Source of the DNA: a virus
IMG/VR virus record: IMGVR_UViG_3300029541_000013
Span: 1 to 38,826 of that record
Strand: one strand, 5' to 3'
DNA length: 38,826 nucleotides
How positions within the stretch are numbered: position 1 is the stretch's first letter; every line of letters starts with the position of its first letter. A model generated the notes under the pieces. That model made no database searches, was not told where the DNA came from, and was given only the letters and a program-made list of their open reading frames with translations. A program made the position numbers and the translations under genes. Shown in pieces: positions 2,800 through 38,826 of the stretch.

Positions 2800-3603
2800 T
2801 TGTTTATGACCTACATTAAAGTTAACAACACCGAATACCCCGCAGAGATCAACGGCAACCCCAAAGACCGCTCGTGGGGCGAGCGCGACACCAAGACCAT
2901 CACACTCACGATGACCGCCGCCGAGGTCGCGGCGCTGCTGCCCGACAACACGCCGTGGAGCATCGTGCAGCGCGAAACGGTGGACAAGCTCGACAACGAC
3001 GGCAATCCAACGGGCGAGACCGAGGAGGTCGTCAACGAGTGGGACAACAGCGCGTACAGCATCGCGGGTGACATCACTGACCACCGCGACGGCACGGTCA
3101 GTATCAAGATGGGCAAGCCAACGGAGACCGAGAATGCCAAAGCGACCGTCACCGCCCTTGCGGGTGAGCCGGTCACGTATGCCCGCGCGGTGGAGCTGCG
3201 CCCCATTATCGAGCAGGCAGCGGTCAGCCTGAGCGACGGCGAGGCGGCGCGCGTGCCGGAACTCATCACAGCATGGGCGTATCCCGTTGCTTACGCGGAG
3301 GGCGACCGCAGGAGCTACGGTGGCAAGGTGTACAAGTGCCGTCAGGCACATACCTCGCAGGCCGATTGGACGCCGGACAAGACGCCCGCGCTGTGGGCGG
3401 GCATCGACGCCGAGCACGCGGGCACGCAGGCAGACCCCATCCCCGCAGCGCGCGGCATGGAGTACGAGTATGGCAAGTACTACCTCGACAGCGAGGACGG
3501 CAAGGTGTACCTCTGTGAGCGCACGGGAGAGGCTGCGGGCGGAAAGATCGTCTTGCAGTATTTGCCGCATGAGCTGGTGGGGAATTATTTTAAGGCTGTG
3601 TAA
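2800..3603 (+). CDS. Tail-associated protein with CBM5/12-like carbohydrate-binding motif
   Basis: Motif GDRRSYGGKVYKCRQAHTSQADWTPDKTPALWAGI fits the chitin-binding type-3 pattern (Y..G..Y.....H.S...W.P.....LW). Start is ambiguous: TTG 2800 or ATG 2806. Confidence 0.75.
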   Translation: MFMTYIKVNNTEYPAEINGNPKDRSWGERDTKTITLTMTAAEVAALLPDNTPWSIVQRETVDKLDNDGNPTGETEEVVNEWDNSAYSIAGDITDHRDGTVSIKMGKPTETENAKATVTALAGEPVTYARAVELRPIIEQAAVSLSDGEAARVPELITAWAYPVAYAEGDRRSYGGKVYKCRQAHTSQADWTPDKTPALWAGIDAEHAGTQADPIPAARGMEYEYGKYYLDSEDGKVYLCERTGEAAGGKIVLQYLPHELVGNYFKAV

Positions 3604-3627
3604 TACGCCGCAGAAAGGGAGCGGGAT

Positions 3628-3930
3628 ATGGATAACGCAAAACACTACGATGACGCGGCGATCGCGCTGATTGAATCGAGGTGCAAGAGCAACACGCACC
3701 GAATCAACGAACTGACGGAACATCAGGTGGCGCTTGACCGGCTGGGAACCTCGGTCGAGGTACTGGCCACGAAGCAGGAGACCGTGGAGGGCGACGTCAA
3801 GGAGATCAAGGAGGATGTGAAAACCATCACGGGCAAGGCGGGCAAGCGGTGGGACGGGCTGGTCGACAAGGCCCTCGCCGTGCTTGCGGGGGCGTTCCTC
3901 GCGTGGCTGCTGTCGGGTGTAGCCTTATGA
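3628..3930 (+). CDS. xhlA: XhlA-type lysis-associated membrane protein
   Basis: RBS AAGGGAG. Coiled-coil N-terminal part plus a C-terminal TM helix (ALAVLAGAFLAWLLSGV), the typical XhlA architecture, at the head of the lysis cassette. Confidence 0.8.
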   Translation: MDNAKHYDDAAIALIESRCKSNTHRINELTEHQVALDRLGTSVEVLATKQETVEGDVKEIKEDVKTITGKAGKRWDGLVDKALAVLAGAFLAWLLSGVAL

Positions 3931-5335: not shown

Positions 5336-5740
5336 ATGGACCAGTTTGCAATCGCCGGATACAGCGGCGGAAACTGCATGATGTGTGTTATCGACAACGG
5401 TGATATTTTCCAGACCGACTATTTCGGCAACCGCCAGCAGCTCATCGGCAAGACCTCTTCGGCATACGCCGAGCTGGAGGCCACCACGCAGCAGTATTAC
5501 GACAAGCTCGTCGAGCTCGGCGTCATTACTCCGCCCAAGACGCAGGAGGAGCTAATGGGCGAAATGCAGTCGGCTATGAGCGACATGGCCGCGGTCATCA
5601 AAAATCTGACCGATCAGGTAAAGGAGCTGAAAGTAAATGGATCTCAAGCAGATCATAGCGGCAGCGTCGAAAATGTTCCCCTCCGCAGACCTGCAAAGCG
5701 CGGCAACGAAAGCGGAACAGGCGATCAGCGGGACGGCTGA
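5336..5740 (+). CDS. Hypothetical protein (cargo cluster gene 1)
   Basis: ATG 5336 preceded by AAAGGAGG. The first ~100 aa look protein-like. The last ~34 codons overlap the next gene and look non-coding in composition. Confidence 0.6.
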   Translation: MDQFAIAGYSGGNCMMCVIDNGDIFQTDYFGNRQQLIGKTSSAYAELEATTQQYYDKLVELGVITPPKTQEELMGEMQSAMSDMAAVIKNLTDQVKELKVNGSQADHSGSVENVPLRRPAKRGNESGTGDQRDG

Positions 5741-5981
5741 CACGCTGGAGGGCGTGCAGAGCGCGGCGCGCAGGCTCGGCATTGATCCAGGCATTGCCGA
5801 CAGCCTCTATGCGCGCTACGGGCGCACAATGCAGGCGAAGGCACTGTGTGGGCTTCTCGGCACGACACCGGAAGCTTTGCGCTCTGACGCCAATAAAATA
5901 CTCGGCGGCGCGCAGAACGCCTCACAGGCCCCACAGAATGGCAAAACGGGGCGCTCAACCAAATTCCCCCGGCTGAAATAG
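5637..5981 (+). CDS. Hypothetical protein (cargo cluster gene 2)
   Basis: ATG 5637 preceded by AAGGAG. Helical, Ala-rich product. It is in the +1 frame relative to the upstream gene. Confidence 0.6.
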   Translation: MDLKQIIAAASKMFPSADLQSAATKAEQAISGTADTLEGVQSAARRLGIDPGIADSLYARYGRTMQAKALCGLLGTTPEALRSDANKILGGAQNASQAPQNGKTGRSTKFPRLK

Positions 5982-6017
5982 CCGTTGGAATAATTTTTGA
6001 GGAAAGGAGAATGCACC

Positions 6018-6560
6018 ATGAACAACGATCAGAGCACCGGCATGAGCTGGCTCGCGGTACTGTTTATCATCATCGTCATCGCGGCGCTGTTTGGCGGCTT
6101 CGGCAACGGCTTTGGCTTTGGCCGCGGCAATATGCCGTATCCCGTCAATGACACCGGCTGCAACCGCGTGAGCAACTGCGAGGTCGAAAAGCAGGGGATC
6201 ATCGACACATCCCGCACGCAGTATCTCATCGAGCAGCAGAGCAACGACACGCGCATGGCGATCAACGCCAGCACCGAGGCGATCACCAGTCAGGCCAGCC
6301 GCATCTACGAGCAGCGCTTGCAGGAGACCATCTTCGACCTCAAGATGGAGAACCAGAACCTCAAGAACGGCATCTTTACCAAGGAGCAGACGGACGCTTT
6401 GGCGGCGAAAATCTCCGACTGCTGCTGCGGCTTTAACCGCCGCCTGGATGCGATCGAAGGCCGCATGCTGACCAAGCCCGCACTGTACGGCGTGGCTTCG
6501 ACCGGCGCGGGCCAGATCATCCCTGCGTCTTGCGGCTGCAACGGCAACGTCAACCTTTAA
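6018..6560 (+). CDS. Membrane-anchored coiled-coil protein with Gly/Phe-rich N-terminus and Cys-rich C-terminus
   Basis: ATG 6018 lies 7 nt after GGAG. TM helix MSWLAVLFIIIVIAALFGGFGNGFGFG, then a heptad-like central region. Cys clusters DCCCG and SCGCNGN occur near the C-terminus. Confidence 0.7.
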   Translation: MNNDQSTGMSWLAVLFIIIVIAALFGGFGNGFGFGRGNMPYPVNDTGCNRVSNCEVEKQGIIDTSRTQYLIEQQSNDTRMAINASTEAITSQASRIYEQRLQETIFDLKMENQNLKNGIFTKEQTDALAAKISDCCCGFNRRLDAIEGRMLTKPALYGVASTGAGQIIPASCGCNGNVNL

Positions 6561-7907: not shown

Positions 7908-7949
7908 AGGCATACTTTACCTTTGCGAACGTGAAAGTAAAATATGCCT
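7908..7949. other. Candidate attP core: 20-bp imperfect inverted repeat around central AA dinucleotide
   Basis: AGGCATACTTTACCTTTGCG (7908-7927), AA (7928-7929), CGTGAAAGTAAAATATGCCT (7930-7949). 16 of 20 positions are complementary. The site abuts the integrase stop codon, and no T-run follows on either strand. Confidence 0.45.
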
Positions 7950-9246
7950 AACGCGGCGTTACAAAAAACGCGCCATCGTTGTCTGCATCAATCCTCCTGA
8001 TGAAGCGCGTCCAGAATTCCTTTTTTTCTTCCCGCGAGTATGTATCATATTCGCCCAGCCCGTTTCTCAAAGCATCAAGGTCTGTCTTTGGCTTTTCTTC
8101 CACGGTCTCAAGGGACTTTTTCAGGCTCGCGTATTCTGCCTTGTAATCGTCCAGCTCGATCAAATCATTTAGATACAGCGTTTTTAGCTTGCTCATTTTC
8201 TTTCGTATCGCGTCCGCGCTTTGCGTGGGCTTTTTTTCTGCCTTTTTGTAATACCTGTTGTTCCGCTCTGTGATTCCTGCAAGCTCGTGCAACAGGTAGT
8301 CTTCCAGCGCGTCTTCCCTGATCCTCTTCATGTGCGGGCAAGCGGAGTTGTCAAGCATCCGCGTCCGGCAACGGTAATATGTATATATCTGTTTTGCGGT
8401 TTCCGACTGCATTGTTCTTCCGCATTCCTTGCAATGCAAAAGCCCCGAGAACAGATACACGCGATCCACATCAACTCCGGCACAGCGCTGTGACCGCTGG
8501 CGGGAAATATCATTTACAAGGTCAAAGTCTTGCTTGCTCACCAACGAAGGGCAAGCGTTTTCGATGCCGTACACCTCGCCAATGTAAAGCCGGTTGTGGA
8601 AATAGTTGACATACTTATTATATGCTCGGTCAATTCCCCATGTGTCGAGCATATATCGTTTTACAGCAAGGACGCTTTTCAGACGAATATATGCGGCAAA
8701 CATATCCCGCGCCGCGTCTGCCGTGTCGTTATCAATTTGGTATTGCCTGTCTTTAATGATATACCCTAAAGGCGCTTTTGAGCCTGCCGGTTGCCCTTTT
8801 GCACGCTTGCCGTCGTTGATAAATTTTATTCGCTCGCTCGTGCGGTCGGCTTCGTCCTGCGCGACGGAAAGCATGATGTTAACCTTTAATCGCCCTGATG
8901 CGGTGCGCGTCTCGTAGTCCTCTTCCGTCGCTTGCCACGTTACGCCGTACCGGTCGAGCTGCGTCTGCACATCGTAATACCCAGCAACATTTCGGAACCA
9001 ACGGTCGAGTTTAATAAACAGGATCGTGTCTACTTTCCCCGCCTTGCAATCGTCCAGCAGCCGCAGGAGCGCCGGGCGTTTTTTATACGGCTTTCTCGCG
9101 GATATGCCTGCATCCTCATATATGCCCACCACGGTCATTTTATTCGCTTTGGCATATCTTGCCAGCGCGTCCCGCTGCTCTTGTAATGATAGACCATGCC
9201 GCGCTTGTTCCTCGCTGGACACGCGTATATACAATGCCGCTCTCAT
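7948..9246 (-). CDS. int: Large serine recombinase (integrase)
   Basis: ATG 9246 after GGAGGGGG. Resolvase-type N-terminus with AALYIRVSSEEQ, a recombinase domain, and a zinc ribbon CKECG...YYRCR...CPH followed by a coiled coil. Confidence 0.92.
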   Translation of the reverse strand: MRAALYIRVSSEEQARHGLSLQEQRDALARYAKANKMTVVGIYEDAGISARKPYKKRPALLRLLDDCKAGKVDTILFIKLDRWFRNVAGYYDVQTQLDRYGVTWQATEEDYETRTASGRLKVNIMLSVAQDEADRTSERIKFINDGKRAKGQPAGSKAPLGYIIKDRQYQIDNDTADAARDMFAAYIRLKSVLAVKRYMLDTWGIDRAYNKYVNYFHNRLYIGEVYGIENACPSLVSKQDFDLVNDISRQRSQRCAGVDVDRVYLFSGLLHCKECGRTMQSETAKQIYTYYRCRTRMLDNSACPHMKRIREDALEDYLLHELAGITERNNRYYKKAEKKPTQSADAIRKKMSKLKTLYLNDLIELDDYKAEYASLKKSLETVEEKPKTDLDALRNGLGEYDTYSREEKKEFWTRFIRRIDADNDGAFFVTPR

Positions 9247-9266
9247 CAAATCCCCCTCCAATCAAT

Positions 9267-9638
9267 CTACAAGCACCATGCAGCCAGTAGAACGATAATG
9301 ACAAACATTATAGCAATTACGCCGTTTCGGATACGGACACCGCGCCGCATAATCTCGATCGTGTCAGCCTTTGCGTCGACGTGGCGTTCCAGCTCATCGT
9401 TTCGCGCCTGCAAGGTTTCCTCGGTCGGCGTCAAGTGTTCGGAAATTCCGAATATTTCATCAAGGGATATGCCGAGCACCTTGCAGATCGGCGCGACGGT
9501 GTAAATGGACGGGGCCTTTGACAATTTCGAGAAAAAGTTCTGCACGGTGGACAGCGGTACGCCGGAAGCGTCGGAAATGTCTTGGTAAGTCAGTTTCAGT
9601 TCTTCTTTACGGATTCTACACAGCTCTTGAATGTTCAT
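9267..9638 (-). CDS. Membrane-tethered XRE-family HTH regulator
   Basis: RBS AAGGTGA. HTH LTYQDISDASGVPLSTVQNF, then a short coiled coil and a C-terminal TM helix GVIAIMFVIIVLLAAWCL. Its stop is 20 nt upstream of the integrase start, in the same orientation. Confidence 0.8.
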   Translation of the reverse strand: MNIQELCRIRKEELKLTYQDISDASGVPLSTVQNFFSKLSKAPSIYTVAPICKVLGISLDEIFGISEHLTPTEETLQARNDELERHVDAKADTIEIMRRGVRIRNGVIAIMFVIIVLLAAWCL

Positions 9639-9806
9639 TTACATCACCTTAACTTTTCCGGTTTCTGCCCGTTTGGGGTGCCAAAAGTGGGTTTGTCGAA
9701 CGCGGTCAAATGCCGTCATGTTGCAAAGTCTTGGTATTGAAGTGGTAAGGTAAAGCGCGATATGGTGAAGACAAGCAGCGGCGACCGCTCCCCGCTGGCT
9801 GCAAAA

Positions 9807-9842
9807 AGGCCCCGCCGTTTGTTGCAGAGGGCGGCGGGGCCT
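9807..9842 (-). terminator. Rho-independent terminator (minus orientation)
   Basis: An 11-bp stem AGGCCCCGCCG (9807-9817) pairs with CGGCGGGGCCT (9832-9842). A5 on the + strand (9803-9807) gives U5 after the stem on the minus-strand transcript. Confidence 0.75.
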
Positions 9843-9927: not shown

Positions 9928-10065
9928 ATGGACGAACAAACGAGAAAAGCGGCAAAACTTTTTGTCAACCTGACGCCAGAGCAAAAAAATGCTATTCTTG
10001 CGATGGTTGATAACCTTCTATCACAGCAAGCACCGCACTCTTCTGCTGCGGAGACAACCGGCTAA
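9928..10065 (+). CDS. Small hypothetical protein (45 aa), convergent with and overlapping the CI-like gene
   Basis: ATG 9928 lies 7 nt after GGAGGGA. A possible promoter is TTGATG (9856-9861), 17 nt, GACAAT with TG upstream. The product is MDEQTRKAAKLFVNLTPEQKNAILAMVDNLLSQQ... Confidence 0.4.
   Translation: MDEQTRKAAKLFVNLTPEQKNAILAMVDNLLSQQAPHSSAAETTG
9970..10057. repeat. Imperfect 42-nt inverted repeat; each arm encodes the same peptide motif on opposite strands
   Basis: Arm A (9970-10011, + strand) encodes LTPEQKNAILAMVD. Arm B (10016-10057, minus strand) encodes LSPQQKSAVLAVIE. Arms are roughly 60 percent complementary by hand alignment. Confidence 0.6.
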
Positions 10066-10441
10066 ACTTGGCAATAAGCTGCGCAAGCTGCACATCCTCG
10101 CCCTCAATCTTCGAATCGGGGGCTTCCTTTTTCCCCTCGGCCTCGACCAGCTTCCGTACCGCCTCAATATCCTCTAAGCATTTGGCGGTTTCTTCTGGCG
10201 TTCTCCCTTCGTGCAAGAGAATGTCATCCGGCGTGGCATCGAGCGTTAAGCACATTTTTACGGCGAATTCCCGCGATTTCAAATTCATATTTTTGTTTCT
10301 GCGCAAATCAGTTATCCAGCCGTTATTCTTCCCAAATTTTCTTGAAAATGCCGCTTCACTTATATCCTCTTTTTTGCAATAATTGACGATTAGATTTAAG
10401 CAGTTTTTACTAAGATTCACGCTGCCTGATTTTTTTGGCAT
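9992..10441 (-). CDS. CI-like XRE-family HTH protein
   Basis: HTH-like region EAAFSRKFGKNNGWITDLRR followed by an acidic linker. Its start codon lies 2 nt downstream of the nuclease stop, in the same operon. Confidence 0.75.
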   Translation of the reverse strand: MPKKSGSVNLSKNCLNLIVNYCKKEDISEAAFSRKFGKNNGWITDLRRNKNMNLKSREFAVKMCLTLDATPDDILLHEGRTPEETAKCLEDIEAVRKLVEAEGKKEAPDSKIEGEDVQLAQLIAKFSRLSPQQKSAVLAVIEGYQPSQE

Positions 10442-10443
10442 AA

Positions 10444-11256
10444 TTATAATCCCTTACCTTTGGACAATATCGATACATCTTCACAGTCCCATAACACTAC
10501 GTTTAGTTCGTCGGCCAAAATTTTAGCAGCCTTAGTATACACGCTATTTGTAACTACAATAGCAACATGAGCATCGTAATGTTCTTTTGCTGCATAGATT
10601 TGTTGCACAGCCTCAATTCCAACTTGCCCAGAATAGTACTTGCACTGAAACGCATACCGGACATCGTTTTTCTCGGCAAGAATATCTGCTCCAAAATCTT
10701 GCGATTTTTTTGTTACCTCAACTTTGCCGTACCCGTTTTTTGCAAGCAGCTCAGCGACATAGCTTTCAAATTCATAACCGTCAATAGACAATTTGAACTT
10801 TTGAAATTTGTTTGCGTCGGCAAGGATTTCGTCGAAAACTTCATTTTCTTTCTTTTCCATTCTCGAAACCCAGTCGATAATCTTATATTCCGTAGCCATA
10901 AGACCGGCTTTTTCCGCAGACAAGGATTTAATTTCTTTCTGCAATTTTTCGGAATCTGATTTTAACGCCGCCTTTTCTTCCTTTGCCTCTCGCATAACAT
11001 CTTCTTTTACTCGAGCTTTTAGAGTTGCCTCGAACTCATCCAGGTCCTTTTTCCGCTTAGATAGTTCTTCTTCTCTTGCAGAAAGGGAATTATCGCGCTC
11101 GCGCAACTCTTTTTGATAATCTTGCAGCATAATTCTATATTCGCGGCTTTTAGCAAAATGCCGCTGGACAGAGCGCTCGGTTTCTGCGAGCGCTTTTTCT
11201 TTTTCAGAAAAGTTTTCTTCGACGTATTTTTTTATTTGCTTATCAAATAGCGCCAT
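10444..11256 (-). CDS. Coiled-coil protein with C-terminal Mrr-type (PD-(D/E)xK) restriction-endonuclease domain
   Basis: ATG 11256, an internal start of the track ORF. About 130 aa of Glu/Lys-rich heptad sequence are followed by GYEFESYVAELLAKNGYGKVEVTKKSQDFGADILAEK...YAFQCKYY...VAIVVTNSVYTKAA, matching the Mrr_cat pattern (FE...Gy..v.....DgGiD....QcK...vTts.f). The gene is AT-richer than the backbone. Confidence 0.8.
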   Translation of the reverse strand: MALFDKQIKKYVEENFSEKEKALAETERSVQRHFAKSREYRIMLQDYQKELRERDNSLSAREEELSKRKKDLDEFEATLKARVKEDVMREAKEEKAALKSDSEKLQKEIKSLSAEKAGLMATEYKIIDWVSRMEKKENEVFDEILADANKFQKFKLSIDGYEFESYVAELLAKNGYGKVEVTKKSQDFGADILAEKNDVRYAFQCKYYSGQVGIEAVQQIYAAKEHYDAHVAIVVTNSVYTKAAKILADELNVVLWDCEDVSILSKGKGL

Positions 11257-11328
11257 TGACAAACCCTCACAAAGGAGAAAGAAAAAATTGTGCAAAGCGT
11301 AAAATCCGATGTTTCGCCGGATAACCGA

Positions 11329-11357
11329 TTGACAGCCGATAAAACATCGGCTATAAT
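11329..11357 (+). promoter_or_regulatory. Consensus sigma-70-type promoter facing the Cro-like gene
   Basis: TTGACA (11329-11334), 17-nt spacer, TATAAT (11352-11357). Confidence 0.7.
11335..11351. promoter_or_regulatory. Operator-like perfect palindrome GCCGAT-N5-ATCGGC filling the promoter spacer
   Basis: GCCGATAAAACATCGGC. Further CCGAT half sites lie at 11306, 11325 and 11431. Confidence 0.6.
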
Positions 11358-11456
11358 AACCTTACAGAACTTAATTAAGGCAACAAAAAACCAAGCCCCC
11401 AACGGATTTCCCGTTTTTGCGGACTTATAACCGATATTTTGTTGGCTGACACTTAC

Positions 11457-11485
11457 ATAATAGCGGTGTTGGTTGCGTTTGTCAA
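11457..11485 (-). promoter_or_regulatory. Sigma-70-type promoter facing the nuclease/CI-like operon
   Basis: On the minus strand: TTGACA (11485-11480), 17 nt, TATTAT (11462-11457). Confidence 0.6.
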
Positions 11486-11486
11486 T

Positions 11487-11505
11487 ATAAAGTTCTGAAC
11501 TTTAT
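11487..11505. promoter_or_regulatory. Operator-like 19-bp perfect palindrome
   Basis: ATAAAGTTC-T-GAACTTTAT, lying between the minus-strand -35 element and the SD of the Cro-like gene. A related half site CAGAACTTAA is at 11365-11374. Confidence 0.6.
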
Positions 11506-11521
11506 AAGGAGGGGAGAACGC

Positions 11522-11746
11522 TTGGGATTAAAGGCAATCCGAGAGAATGCCGGTTTGCGTCAGGAAGACGTAGCGAAGAAACTCCGCGTAAGAGTTTCCG
11601 CTGTGTCGAACTGGGAACGCGGTGTGAATGGTATCGCAAGCAAGTACATTAGACCGTTGACCAGATTGTACGGAGTGACCGAAGCGGAAATCAGAGCGGC
11701 ATCGGAAGCCGCCCAGACCGAAAGAGCGGGCAAGGAGGGCGCATGA
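11522..11746 (+). CDS. Cro-like XRE-family HTH protein
   Basis: TTG start after AAGGAGGGG. HTH LRQEDVAKKLRVRVSAVSNWERG. It is the first gene of the rightward operon. Confidence 0.8.
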   Translation: MGLKAIRENAGLRQEDVAKKLRVRVSAVSNWERGVNGIASKYIRPLTRLYGVTEAEIRAASEAAQTERAGKEGA

Positions 11747-12403: not shown

Positions 12404-12551
12404 CACGCTGTTTTTTGGCGGCATCGCCGCTGCGGTGATCGCGCTGAACGGCTGCGACTTTACCACGAGCCTTGCCGTCATTGGCGCTTGCGCGGTCGGC
12501 AAGGTGCTGTACGAGCTGCTGCCCTACATCGACAGGGGGTGCAGACGATGA
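12396..12551 (+). CDS. Small membrane protein
   Basis: ATG 12396. The product is MANTLFFGGIAAAVIALNGCDFTTSLAVIGACAVGKVLYELL. Confidence 0.5.
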   Translation: MANTLFFGGIAAAVIALNGCDFTTSLAVIGACAVGKVLYELLPYIDRGCRR

Positions 12552-13081
12552 GATGGCACGACAAGCGCACGAGAGAGCAGCGCAAGGCCGATGAATCGGC
12601 GCTGTTTGCGGCGGCGTGTCTTGGCGCGACGGTCATCTTGATCGTGGTCGCCATCTTAGCCACCAGCGTGCAGGCGGTCGAAGCAAGTCCCAAGGAATCC
12701 TCGGAAGTCGCCGAGGAATATGACCCCGCGTGGGATATTCCCGCGATCGAAAGCGCGGTGTGCAACGACGTTTTTCTTGATGAGTTTACGCTCACGGCCT
12801 ATTGCCCCGGGCGCTGCTGCTGCGGCAAGTGGGCGAGCGGCTACACCGCCACCGGCACGCTGGCCACCGAGGGGCGCTCGATCGCGGTCGACCCGAAGGT
12901 GATCCCTTACGGCTCACACGTCCTGCTGATCTGGCCGGACGGCACGCAGCACAGCTATATCGCCGAGGACTGCGGCGGCGGCGTGAACGGCAACCACATC
13001 GACGTGTTTTTCAACGACCATCAGGCGGCGCGCTATTTCGGCGTGCAGAGCGCGATGGCGTATTTGGAGGGAGAGAAATGA
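12548..13081 (+). CDS. Membrane-anchored 3D-domain protein (MltA/YuiC-type double-psi beta-barrel)
   Basis: ATGA overlap with the upstream gene. N-terminal TM helix, then FTLTAYCPGRCCCGKWASGYTATGT...GRSIAVDPKVIPYGSHV...YIAEDCGGGVNGNHIDVFF, matching the 3D-domain pattern. Confidence 0.8.
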   Translation: MRWHDKRTREQRKADESALFAAACLGATVILIVVAILATSVQAVEASPKESSEVAEEYDPAWDIPAIESAVCNDVFLDEFTLTAYCPGRCCCGKWASGYTATGTLATEGRSIAVDPKVIPYGSHVLLIWPDGTQHSYIAEDCGGGVNGNHIDVFFNDHQAARYFGVQSAMAYLEGEK

Positions 13082-38555: not shown

Positions 38556-38762
38556 ATGGACAAAAACAAACTGCGGGAGCAGATCAACAGTGCATATGCC
38601 ATGATTACCGGCATCTATGTTAAGGGCAGCGAGGCTAAGCGCATGGCAATGGCGATGCAGAACCTCGAAAATGCCTTTGCCGAGTTGGACAAGCCGGACA
38701 AGCCGCCCGCCAAAGGGGGCAAGACGAATCCCGAGAAGGAAAGCGAGGTAACCGATGGCTGA
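38556..38762 (+). CDS. Small coiled-coil protein spanning the circular junction
   Basis: ATG 38556 after AGGAGTGA. Its last 35 nt are the same sequence as window positions 1-35. Its stop overlaps the fibre gene start (ATGGCTGA). Confidence 0.65.
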   Translation: MDKNKLREQINSAYAMITGIYVKGSEAKRMAMAMQNLENAFAELDKPDKPPAKGGKTNPEKESEVTDG

Positions 38763-38826
38763 TAAAGCAATTTCCGACCTCACCCAAGCAACACAGATCA
38801 CAGGCGAAGACCTTTTTGTCTTGCAG
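38728..38826. repeat. Terminal overlap copy 2 (identical to 1..99)
   Basis: Exact 99-nt repeat of the window start. It includes the first 72 nt of the collagen-like fibre gene. Confidence 0.95.

Follow-up and report, generated by a model that had tools for sequence, protein, structure and literature searches.

Exclusion genes of lysogeny operons are well known: rexA and rexB of phage lambda are co-transcribed with cI, and P22 carries sieB. Mrr_cat, in turn, is an established effector domain of defence. Epona is a single protein with an Mrr_cat domain and two transmembrane (TM) helices, encoded in cassettes of Vibrio chromosomal integrons and reported to be anti-phage (bioRxiv 10.1101/2024.07.02.601686). 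A membrane-anchored protein with a DUF4041 coiled coil and a C-terminal nuclease was validated against phages in E. coli by Vassallo et al. 2022 (PMC9519451). Here we analyse a gene for a 270-amino-acid protein, predicted to carry an Mrr_cat nuclease on a coiled-coil stalk, which lies beside the genetic switch of the IMG/VR phage record IMGVR_UViG_3300029541_000013 (38,826 nucleotides, analysed at full length and called the window below).

According to our reading, to which we give a probability slightly above one half (about 0.55), this gene is an accessory ('moron') gene of the prophage, encoding a defence or exclusion nuclease that would be transcribed in the lysogen from the leftward promoter of the switch.

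The cargo gene, its product and its slot

As judged from sequence profiles and a structural model, the product is an Mrr-type PD-(D/E)xK nuclease with intact active-site residues, on a helical stalk of about 150 residues. Pfam Mrr_cat (PF04471) matches residues 157-260 with E=3.2e-28 and 98.6 bits, for a cut-off of 21; Pfam NA-iREase1 also passes its cut-off (2e-10, 41.1 bits). A preliminary description of the sequence had read a C-terminal Mrr_cat nuclease from the motifs FE, GYGKVEV, DFGADI, FQCKYY and VVTNSVYT, and all of them are present. The canonical Mrr active-site residues E164, D187, G189, D191 and Q204-C205-K206 do not vary among 32 aligned full-length relatives, and the D-x-G-x-D...Q-x-K motif is intact in 69/70 full-length relatives. 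In the AlphaFold2 model built from the 32-sequence alignment (mean predicted local distance difference test score 86.6; block means of at least 90 at residues 41-150), a single unbroken helix runs from residue 3 to residue 153 and is followed by a nuclease core ordered alpha-beta-beta-beta-alpha-beta. Foldseek comparison of the model with the PDB likewise bore out the Mrr-type fold, retrieving AF1548, MspJI, AspBHI, EndoMS/NucS, the Avs4 nuclease domain, Can2 and Hjc, with a probability of 1.00 for 1y88, 4f0p, 4oc8, 5gke and 8dgf.

The Glu/Lys heptad coiled coil proposed for the N-terminal half was confirmed by composition (33% Glu+Lys over 156 residues), by leucines at seven-residue spacing (L44, 51, 58, 65, 72 and 79) and by the modelled helix. 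Pfam places no domain N-terminal of residue 157, neither an Mrr_N winged helix nor an SRA-like or other modified-base reader. The stalk contains two conserved motifs, KSREYRIMLQxYQxEL (residues 36-51) and TEYxIIDWxxRxEKKE (residues 122-137), and the part between them varies in length among relatives. A profile of the stalk alone, searched for fusions to other effector domains, found only the same family and its fragments, so the stalk is not a widely shared sensor module.

In an exhaustive profile search Mrr_cat proteins numbered about 25,000. Of the 150 best cluster representatives, a few dozen, or about 50 as counted from match coordinates, match from inside the stalk to the nuclease domain. 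N-terminal hydrophobic segments, called by a simple hydropathy cut-off, occur in 24/70 full-length relatives, with one to four segments each and nearly always at least two. The wider architecture therefore comprises an optional membrane anchor, a coiled-coil stalk and Mrr_cat, and the window protein, which has no TM segment, is the soluble form of the family. A virome protein in UniProt (A0A8S5QLE7, annotated 'restriction endonuclease') is 93% identical to it, and the identical 270-residue protein was found in 86 blocks of the sequence collection.

The boundaries of the cargo gene and of the 149-residue gene that starts 2 nt beyond its stop (TAA-TT-ATG) are exactly those of the preliminary description. 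An alternative TTG start at 11295 would add 13 residues; gene callers on public contigs choose the 270-residue form. The ratio of non-synonymous to synonymous substitution (dN/dS), taken against five relatives, lies at 0.05-0.08 in both halves; this is a genuine gene maintained by purifying selection, not a chance open reading frame (ORF). Its composition is foreign to the phage backbone, as had been suspected from hand counts: G+C is 40.0% for the gene vs 53.0% for the window, and the G+C content at third codon positions (GC3) is 0.38 vs mostly 0.53-0.78 in the backbone genes that were measured, apart from lower values (0.44-0.54) in three short or early ones. Since GC3 is 0.38 in the stalk half and in the nuclease half alike, this AT-richness is synonymous and not a by-product of Lys and Glu codons.

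The position of the gene was surveyed in 45 IMG/VR loci encoding a relative of the 149-residue protein, the gene directly upstream being classified in each. Four mutually unrelated classes of occupant were found, all AT-rich at synonymous sites: the coiled-coil Mrr nuclease of 270 residues (13 loci, GC3 0.41) and proteins of 221 residues (8 loci, GC3 0.30), 272 residues (10 loci, GC3 0.31) and 187 residues (14 loci, GC3 0.42). The last three match no known family and gave no Pfam, PADLOC or informative PHROG match. Across the four classes cro is about 90% identical and 170-200 bp of the switch are 93-99% identical. Homology ends at the rightward promoter or no more than about 30 bp past it, and its hexamers are kept in every class; the variable cassette thus starts at the left edge of the conserved switch, at or just beyond the rightward promoter. 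By sequence comparison, such a pattern marks an exchangeable cargo position.

In the 265 bp between cargo gene and cro (11257-11521), two near-consensus sigma-70-type promoters stand face to face (Table 1), with a predicted overlap of the two transcripts of about 85 nt. Phages P2 and 186 also have switches with face-to-face promoters. The leftward promoter is the only strong one upstream of the cargo gene and lies within the part of the switch common to all cassette types. The distant phage L010, with a nuclease of only about 50% identity, has the same layout with conserved sequence blocks. Going by this layout, the leftward transcript has the nuclease gene as its first ORF, which agrees with the description of that gene as the first on the lysogeny side. 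By analogy with the switches of P2 and 186, we infer that this transcript is the lysogenic one.

Some smaller elements were seen in the switch. Immediately next to the leftward -35 hexamer lies a perfect palindrome, TATAAAGTTC-T-GAACTTTATA (11486-11506), and GCCGAT-N5-ATCGGC (11335-11351) occupies the spacer of the rightward promoter. Neither recurs elsewhere in the window above chance, and the second is not conserved in the sister cassettes or in L010. The 196-nt leader of the cargo gene folds with z=-2.9, its Shine-Dalgarno region being paired in the predicted structure.

Table 1. Coordinates of the features of the immunity region and adjoining integration gene in the window
Feature	Position	Strand	Basis
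Large serine integrase	7948..9261	-	Pfam Resolvase + Zn_ribbon_recom
Second lysogeny-side HTH_3 gene, 123 aa, directly upstream of integrase	9267..9638	-	Pfam HTH_3 3e-8
Intrinsic terminator ending the leftward two-gene transcript	9803..9841	-	fold + UUUUU
149-aa XRE-like HTH gene (putative)	9992..10441	-	ORF, transitive homology
270-aa coiled-coil + Mrr_cat nuclease gene (cargo)	10444..11256	-	ORF, Pfam, dN/dS
Mrr_cat PD-(D/E)xK nuclease domain, residues 157-260	10477..10788	-	Pfam, alignment, Foldseek
Catalytic codon K206	10639-10641	-
Catalytic codon Q204	10645-10647	-
Catalytic codon D191	10684-10686	-
Catalytic codon D187	10696-10698	-
Catalytic codon E164	10765-10767	-
N-terminal stalk, residues 1-156, long helix/coiled coil	10789..11256	-	AlphaFold2, heptad Leu, alignment
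Shine-Dalgarno GAGGG, 7 nt 5' of cargo ATG	11264..11268	-	read from sequence
Rightward promoter TTGACA-17-TATAAT (12/12), towards cro	11329..11357	+	promoter scan, conservation
Leftward promoter TTGACA-17-TATTAT (11/12)	11457..11485	-	promoter scan, conservation
Cro-like 74-aa HTH_3 gene, divergent from cargo operon	11522..11746	+	Pfam HTH_3 1e-11

The 149-residue protein encoded downstream of the cargo had been described as a helix-turn-helix (HTH) protein, and transitive homology supports an HTH regulator. It has no direct HTH hit in Pfam, PHROG, NCBIfam or PADLOC, and neither a PDB profile search nor Foldseek on its low-confidence model, which contains five short helices within residues 12-75, gave anything significant. 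Its 130-residue partner in L010, found by BLASTP at 5e-12, passes the Pfam cut-offs for HTH_31 and HTH_3, and several relatives are named 'XRE-family HTH' by the Joint Genome Institute. The family is mosaic, as exemplified by the window gene and by L054 (3908-4357) and L064 (3830-4198): the C-terminal residues, about 65 (...GEDxQLAQLIAxFSRLSPQQKSAVLAVIEGYQPSQE), are common to all and are preceded by one of three N-terminal HTH domains, the first found with the 270- and 221-residue cargos, the second (GTG start) with the 272-residue cargo and the third with the 187-residue cargo.

We also read 14 genomic contexts of relatives that have both stalk and nuclease; some contexts are represented by more than one contig, and some of the relatives are 40-50% identical. 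All 14 are lysogeny modules of temperate phages in Clostridia. Contexts of the window type (L001-L009, L027-L031) have cro divergent from nuclease, HTH, HTH_3 and a serine or tyrosine integrase. In L010-L014 the order is nuclease, HTH, DUF4352 protein, HTH_3 and tyrosine integrase. In L015-L017 cro is divergent from a 111-residue HTH gene, which is followed by the nuclease, a 142-residue protein and a tyrosine integrase, and L018-L020 have nuclease, a 163-residue HTH homologue and a serine integrase beside cro. L159 and L160 are tyrosine-integrase phages, the L160 nuclease adjoining a TM2-domain protein. In L161, beside cro, the nuclease follows a CI with HTH_3 and Peptidase_S24 domains and precedes a Zn-ribbon protein and, two genes downstream of the nuclease (5432-6089), an MNT/HEPN-like pair of nucleotidyltransferase and NTase_sub_bind proteins. 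L081, from Oscillibacter ruminantium, shows Xre, an ImmA-like HExxH protein, the nuclease and, further on, a tyrosine integrase; L079 and L080 are prophage regions with antirepressors. As the neighbours and the order relative to the repressor-like gene vary, the nuclease appears to be an autonomous single-gene cargo and not part of an obligate two-gene system.

The reasoning of the preliminary description, which took the gene for a prophage accessory and candidate defence gene, is thus supported by a slot that varies among near-identical phages and by contexts that are, as far as they were read, lysogeny modules without exception. A two-gene module with the HTH gene was not supported: the HTH gene also accompanies unrelated cargos, and the nuclease occurs without it directly downstream in L161, L081 and L015.

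Two side observations concern these loci. One integrated copy (L029, 3447-3998) has a nuclease gene cut to 183 residues, with the stalk lost, the cro side replaced and the HTH gene intact, and resembles a prophage in decay or a variant produced by deletion. L079 encodes a 155-residue protein (3283-3750) that resembles ToxN/AbiQ, by eye only.

Possible roles of the cargo gene

We hypothesize that the lysogen transcribes the cargo from the leftward switch promoter and that the stalk dimerises or oligomerises the enzyme, positioning or gating the nuclease. To break both strands of DNA, enzymes of the PD-(D/E)xK type generally require a pair of active sites. In about one third of the relatives, the N-terminal TM segments would tether the stalk to the membrane, and there the stalk could set a fixed distance between nuclease and membrane that would suit an attack on incoming DNA. 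The nuclease may attack the DNA of a superinfecting phage directly or trigger abortive infection, in either case to the benefit of the lysogen.

A bolder version is tempting, and we hold it only tentatively: the interval between switch and HTH gene would be a dedicated defence hotspot, in a very common human-gut lineage of Oscillospiraceae phages, that swaps at least four unrelated AT-rich cargos, some together with the DNA-binding half of the HTH protein, and the nuclease would be a single-protein system whose stalk holds it near the membrane to cut entering DNA. The soluble forms would then need a partner for placement at the membrane. Three of the four cargos have no known function, so the word hotspot is used here by analogy.

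Several observations weigh against a defence role in either version. None of the 45 sister loci has an empty slot, so the occupant could serve a need other than defence. The 270-residue protein has no recognisable sensor or DNA-reader domain, and a methyltransferase or immunity partner that could explain the sparing of self DNA is absent. The promoters were assigned by consensus scans and conservation. No PADLOC model matches the full length of the protein, in line with the preliminary description, which had recognised no named system in this architecture; its match to the candidate PDC-S02 (5e-9) is no better than that to the nuclease domain of ZorD (1.6e-14).

The tight coupling of the two genes, with a gap of 2 nt, recalls a toxin-antitoxin or addiction pair, in which the nuclease would be the toxin and the 149-residue HTH protein the antitoxin and autoregulator, stabilising the prophage or acting as an abortive-infection switch. 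Toxin-first order with an XRE-type antitoxin has precedents in HigBA and MqsRA, a homologous HTH gene lies directly downstream of the L010 and L018 relatives, and the N-terminal HTH domain switches along with some cargo types. However, the variant that accompanies the nuclease is also found beside the unrelated 221-residue cargo, and the HTH gene pairs with three other cargos in all. The nuclease, moreover, does without that HTH downstream in L161 (after the S24 CI), in L081 (after Xre and the ImmA-like protein), in L015-L017 (after the 111-residue HTH) and in L160 (before the TM2 protein), and the HTH family, with 771 hits vs 76 for the nuclease, is about ten times larger. We consider such a pair unlikely. 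An equally unlikely role is one intrinsic to the phage, as a structure-specific nuclease or a regulator, for example in the lysis-lysogeny decision, in excision, in the processing of recombination intermediates or in degradation of host DNA. The occupied slot in 45/45 sister loci, the likeness of the fold to Hjc resolvases and EndoMS/NucS as well, and the constant location inside the lysogeny and integration module would fit it. Yet sister phages hold unrelated, non-nuclease genes in the same place and keep switch, cro, second HTH and integrase; the GC3 is foreign; the gene is present with serine and tyrosine integrases alike; and it co-occurs with an ImmA-like protease, so that it is no stand-in for one.

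The Mrr_cat domain itself, the presence of MspJI and AspBHI among the best structural matches and the public annotations 'restriction endonuclease' and 'restriction system protein' would agree with an ordinary phage-borne type IV restriction enzyme of the Mrr kind, cutting modified incoming DNA. The N-terminus, however, is a plain helix with no Mrr_N, SRA or modified-base reader, PADLOC gives only a weak mREase_IV match (4e-5), confined to the nuclease region, and, as a circumstantial point, three carriers of the gene (L009, L027, L031) also encode an N6/N4 DNA methyltransferase. This makes an ordinary type IV enzyme improbable, if anything a little more so than the two preceding roles. A catalytically dead binding or sensor domain of the NA-iREase1 type, to which the second Pfam match could point, is very improbable, as Mrr_cat scores far better (98.6 vs 41.1 bits) and E164, D187, D191, Q204 and K206 are conserved as described above. 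Taken together, we continue to favour the accessory defence or exclusion nuclease.

Two further candidates were ruled out. A substitute for an ImmA-type anti-repressor protease was rejected because an ImmA-like HExxH gene lies beside the relative in L081, and alike in the Roseburia phage Jekyll. A recombination directionality factor was discarded, since phages with a serine integrase and phages with a tyrosine integrase carry the same gene.

Hardly any experiments have addressed the prophage defence genes of gut Clostridia that are strict anaerobes. The locus described here provides a compact candidate of one gene, with an active site that allows a clear mutational test, and it maps an exchange slot with three more cargo genes of no known family, in a phage lineage present in many human-gut metagenomes. 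If the gene is protective, the repertoire of single-protein defences would gain an Mrr nuclease architecture with a coiled coil or a membrane tether, and the family would explain part of the phage-phage exclusion in abundant gut commensals. If it is not, the never-empty slot would point to an unrecognised component of the lysogeny module.

Neighbouring genes and the carrier phage

The leftward transcript ends, as had been noted, at a strong terminator (-26.8 kcal/mol, z=-4.1), whose stem (9808-9841) has a G+C core of 10 bp, or 13 bp with A-U pairs, followed by UUUUU. Downstream of it, the gene of the 123-residue HTH_3 protein, with a weak NCBIfam match to RstR, is 80-91% identical in all cassette classes and ends 5 nt before the integrase ORF. 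Its product, with a hydrophobic C-terminal tail (...GVIAIMFVIIVLLAAWCL), could be a regulator tethered to the membrane, or else the true maintenance repressor. We do not assign that function to the 149-residue protein, because its N-terminal domain comes in three variants while cro and the switch are conserved and the second HTH_3 gene is kept in all classes.

An ORF of 45 codons (9928-10065, plus strand; MDEQTRKAAKLFVNLTPEQKNAILAMVDNLLSQQ...) with a strong GGAGGG ribosome-binding site is convergent to the 149-residue HTH gene and covers its last 74 nt in antisense. It is intact, with conservative changes only, in 59/59 related loci checked (four cassette classes), and the distant phage L010 has a 45-codon gene at the same antisense position (6121-6258). 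Both proteins contain an L-T-x-E-x-K-x-x-I-L motif, with which the HTH proteins also end. The 45-residue protein may be a mimic of the C-terminal tail of the regulator, or the gene may act as an antisense regulator.

The termini of the window share an exact direct overlap of 99 bases (1-99 = 38728-38826), and the window is therefore a circularly closed assembly representing a complete phage genome of about 38.7 kb. Its head genes encode terminase, an SPP1-type portal, minor capsid protein 2 and the major capsid protein; tail-fibre-like proteins (with collagen repeats, DUF6273 and CBM5/12) and an M15 endolysin are also present, and the early operon comprises a 3D-domain protein, YqaJ, RecT and SSB. 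Two metagenome contigs (L005, L008) contain the same phage integrated beside spo0A, spoIVB and ftsZ, which places the host among the Clostridia. The genome assemblies that are sources of full-length relatives of the 270-residue protein are all from Oscillospiraceae. The window phage is probably a temperate siphovirus of gut Clostridia with a host in the Oscillospiraceae. Compared with deposited phage genomes, the immunity region has almost no DNA similarity.

The same switch, cargo and HTH genes occur with either a large serine integrase, as in the window, or a tyrosine integrase (L007, L009, L022-L024, L027-L031). The serine-integrase prophage adjoins spo0A (L005, L008) and the tyrosine-integrase prophage adjoins smpB (L028, L029). 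By this comparison the integration module is a unit that such phages exchange as a whole.

The early-operon protein encoded at 12488-13081 (plus strand) has an N-terminal hydrophobic segment followed by the 3D domain, a fold like that of cell-wall hydrolases. Its position, an odd location for a wall-active domain, is kept in all relatives.

Comparison with known systems

Among the PADLOC models, ZorD aligns only through the last 140 or so positions (916-1056) of its 1071-position profile. No SWI2/SNF2 helicase fusion and no zorABC were found among the window neighbours, as Zorya would have. Matches to LmuB of Lamassu (1e-3) fall on the coiled coil and look compositional; the cargo adjoins the HTH gene and the switch, and no LmuB SMC/ATPase gene. 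The PDC-S02 match covers residues 103-245 only and leaves the conserved N-terminal motifs of the family outside the alignment. PDC-S02 is an unvalidated single-gene candidate of similar size (models of 324-390 positions) with a C-terminal Mrr-like nuclease, for which a literature search returned only tool-output listings and no description or test. The TM-bearing relatives reach 4e-18 on PDC-S02, mostly across the nuclease domain, and in three proteins (P0332, P0334, P0277) the alignment to the model PDLC04796 extends into the stalk region.

Mrr, MspJI and AspBHI have the same catalytic fold as the window protein, together with its D...(Q/E)xK motif. At the N-terminus they have a reader of modified DNA (Mrr_N or SRA-like), whereas the window protein has a coiled coil. 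The lambda and P22 exclusion genes are similar in logic, as accessory genes expressed with the prophage immunity region, and the L161 relative lies directly downstream of an S24-type CI, as rexAB follows its repressor gene. The proteins, however, are unrelated, and the window cargo lies between promoter and HTH gene, upstream of the latter.

The protein of Vassallo et al. has the order of anchor, coiled coil and C-terminal DNA-cleavage domain that is seen in the TM-bearing relatives. Its coiled coil and nuclease belong to other families, and the window protein has neither a Pfam DUF4041 match nor an anchor. Epona, compared by description only, is likewise a small single protein in which Mrr_cat is the sole recognisable enzymatic part, joined to a non-enzymatic accessory region, and its two TM helices are matched in about one third of the full-length relatives. 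In contrast, the window protein has no TM segment and carries a 150-residue coiled-coil stalk not described for Epona, and it comes from a lysogeny operon of a Clostridia phage instead of Vibrio integron cassettes.

A cultured relative in position is found in the Roseburia phage Jekyll, a mitomycin-inducible temperate phage. Its 'putative restriction endonuclease' (LR596902.1 42230-43072; L162 3509-4351) has an Mrr_cat domain about 50% identical to that of the window protein and occupies the same place in the module, between an Xre/ImmA-like pair and the integrase. The N-terminus differs, consisting of a Zn-ribbon, a low-complexity linker and a TM2 domain, with no coiled coil, and makes this a further Mrr_cat protein with a membrane anchor that is encoded in a lysogeny module. 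The depositors annotated the Xre/ImmA-like pair as antitoxin and toxin.

In summary, the gene of the 270-residue protein is a credible candidate for prophage defence or exclusion, best described as a version, with a coiled-coil stalk and optionally an anchor, of the single-protein Mrr-nuclease defence genes located in the immunity region of prophages.

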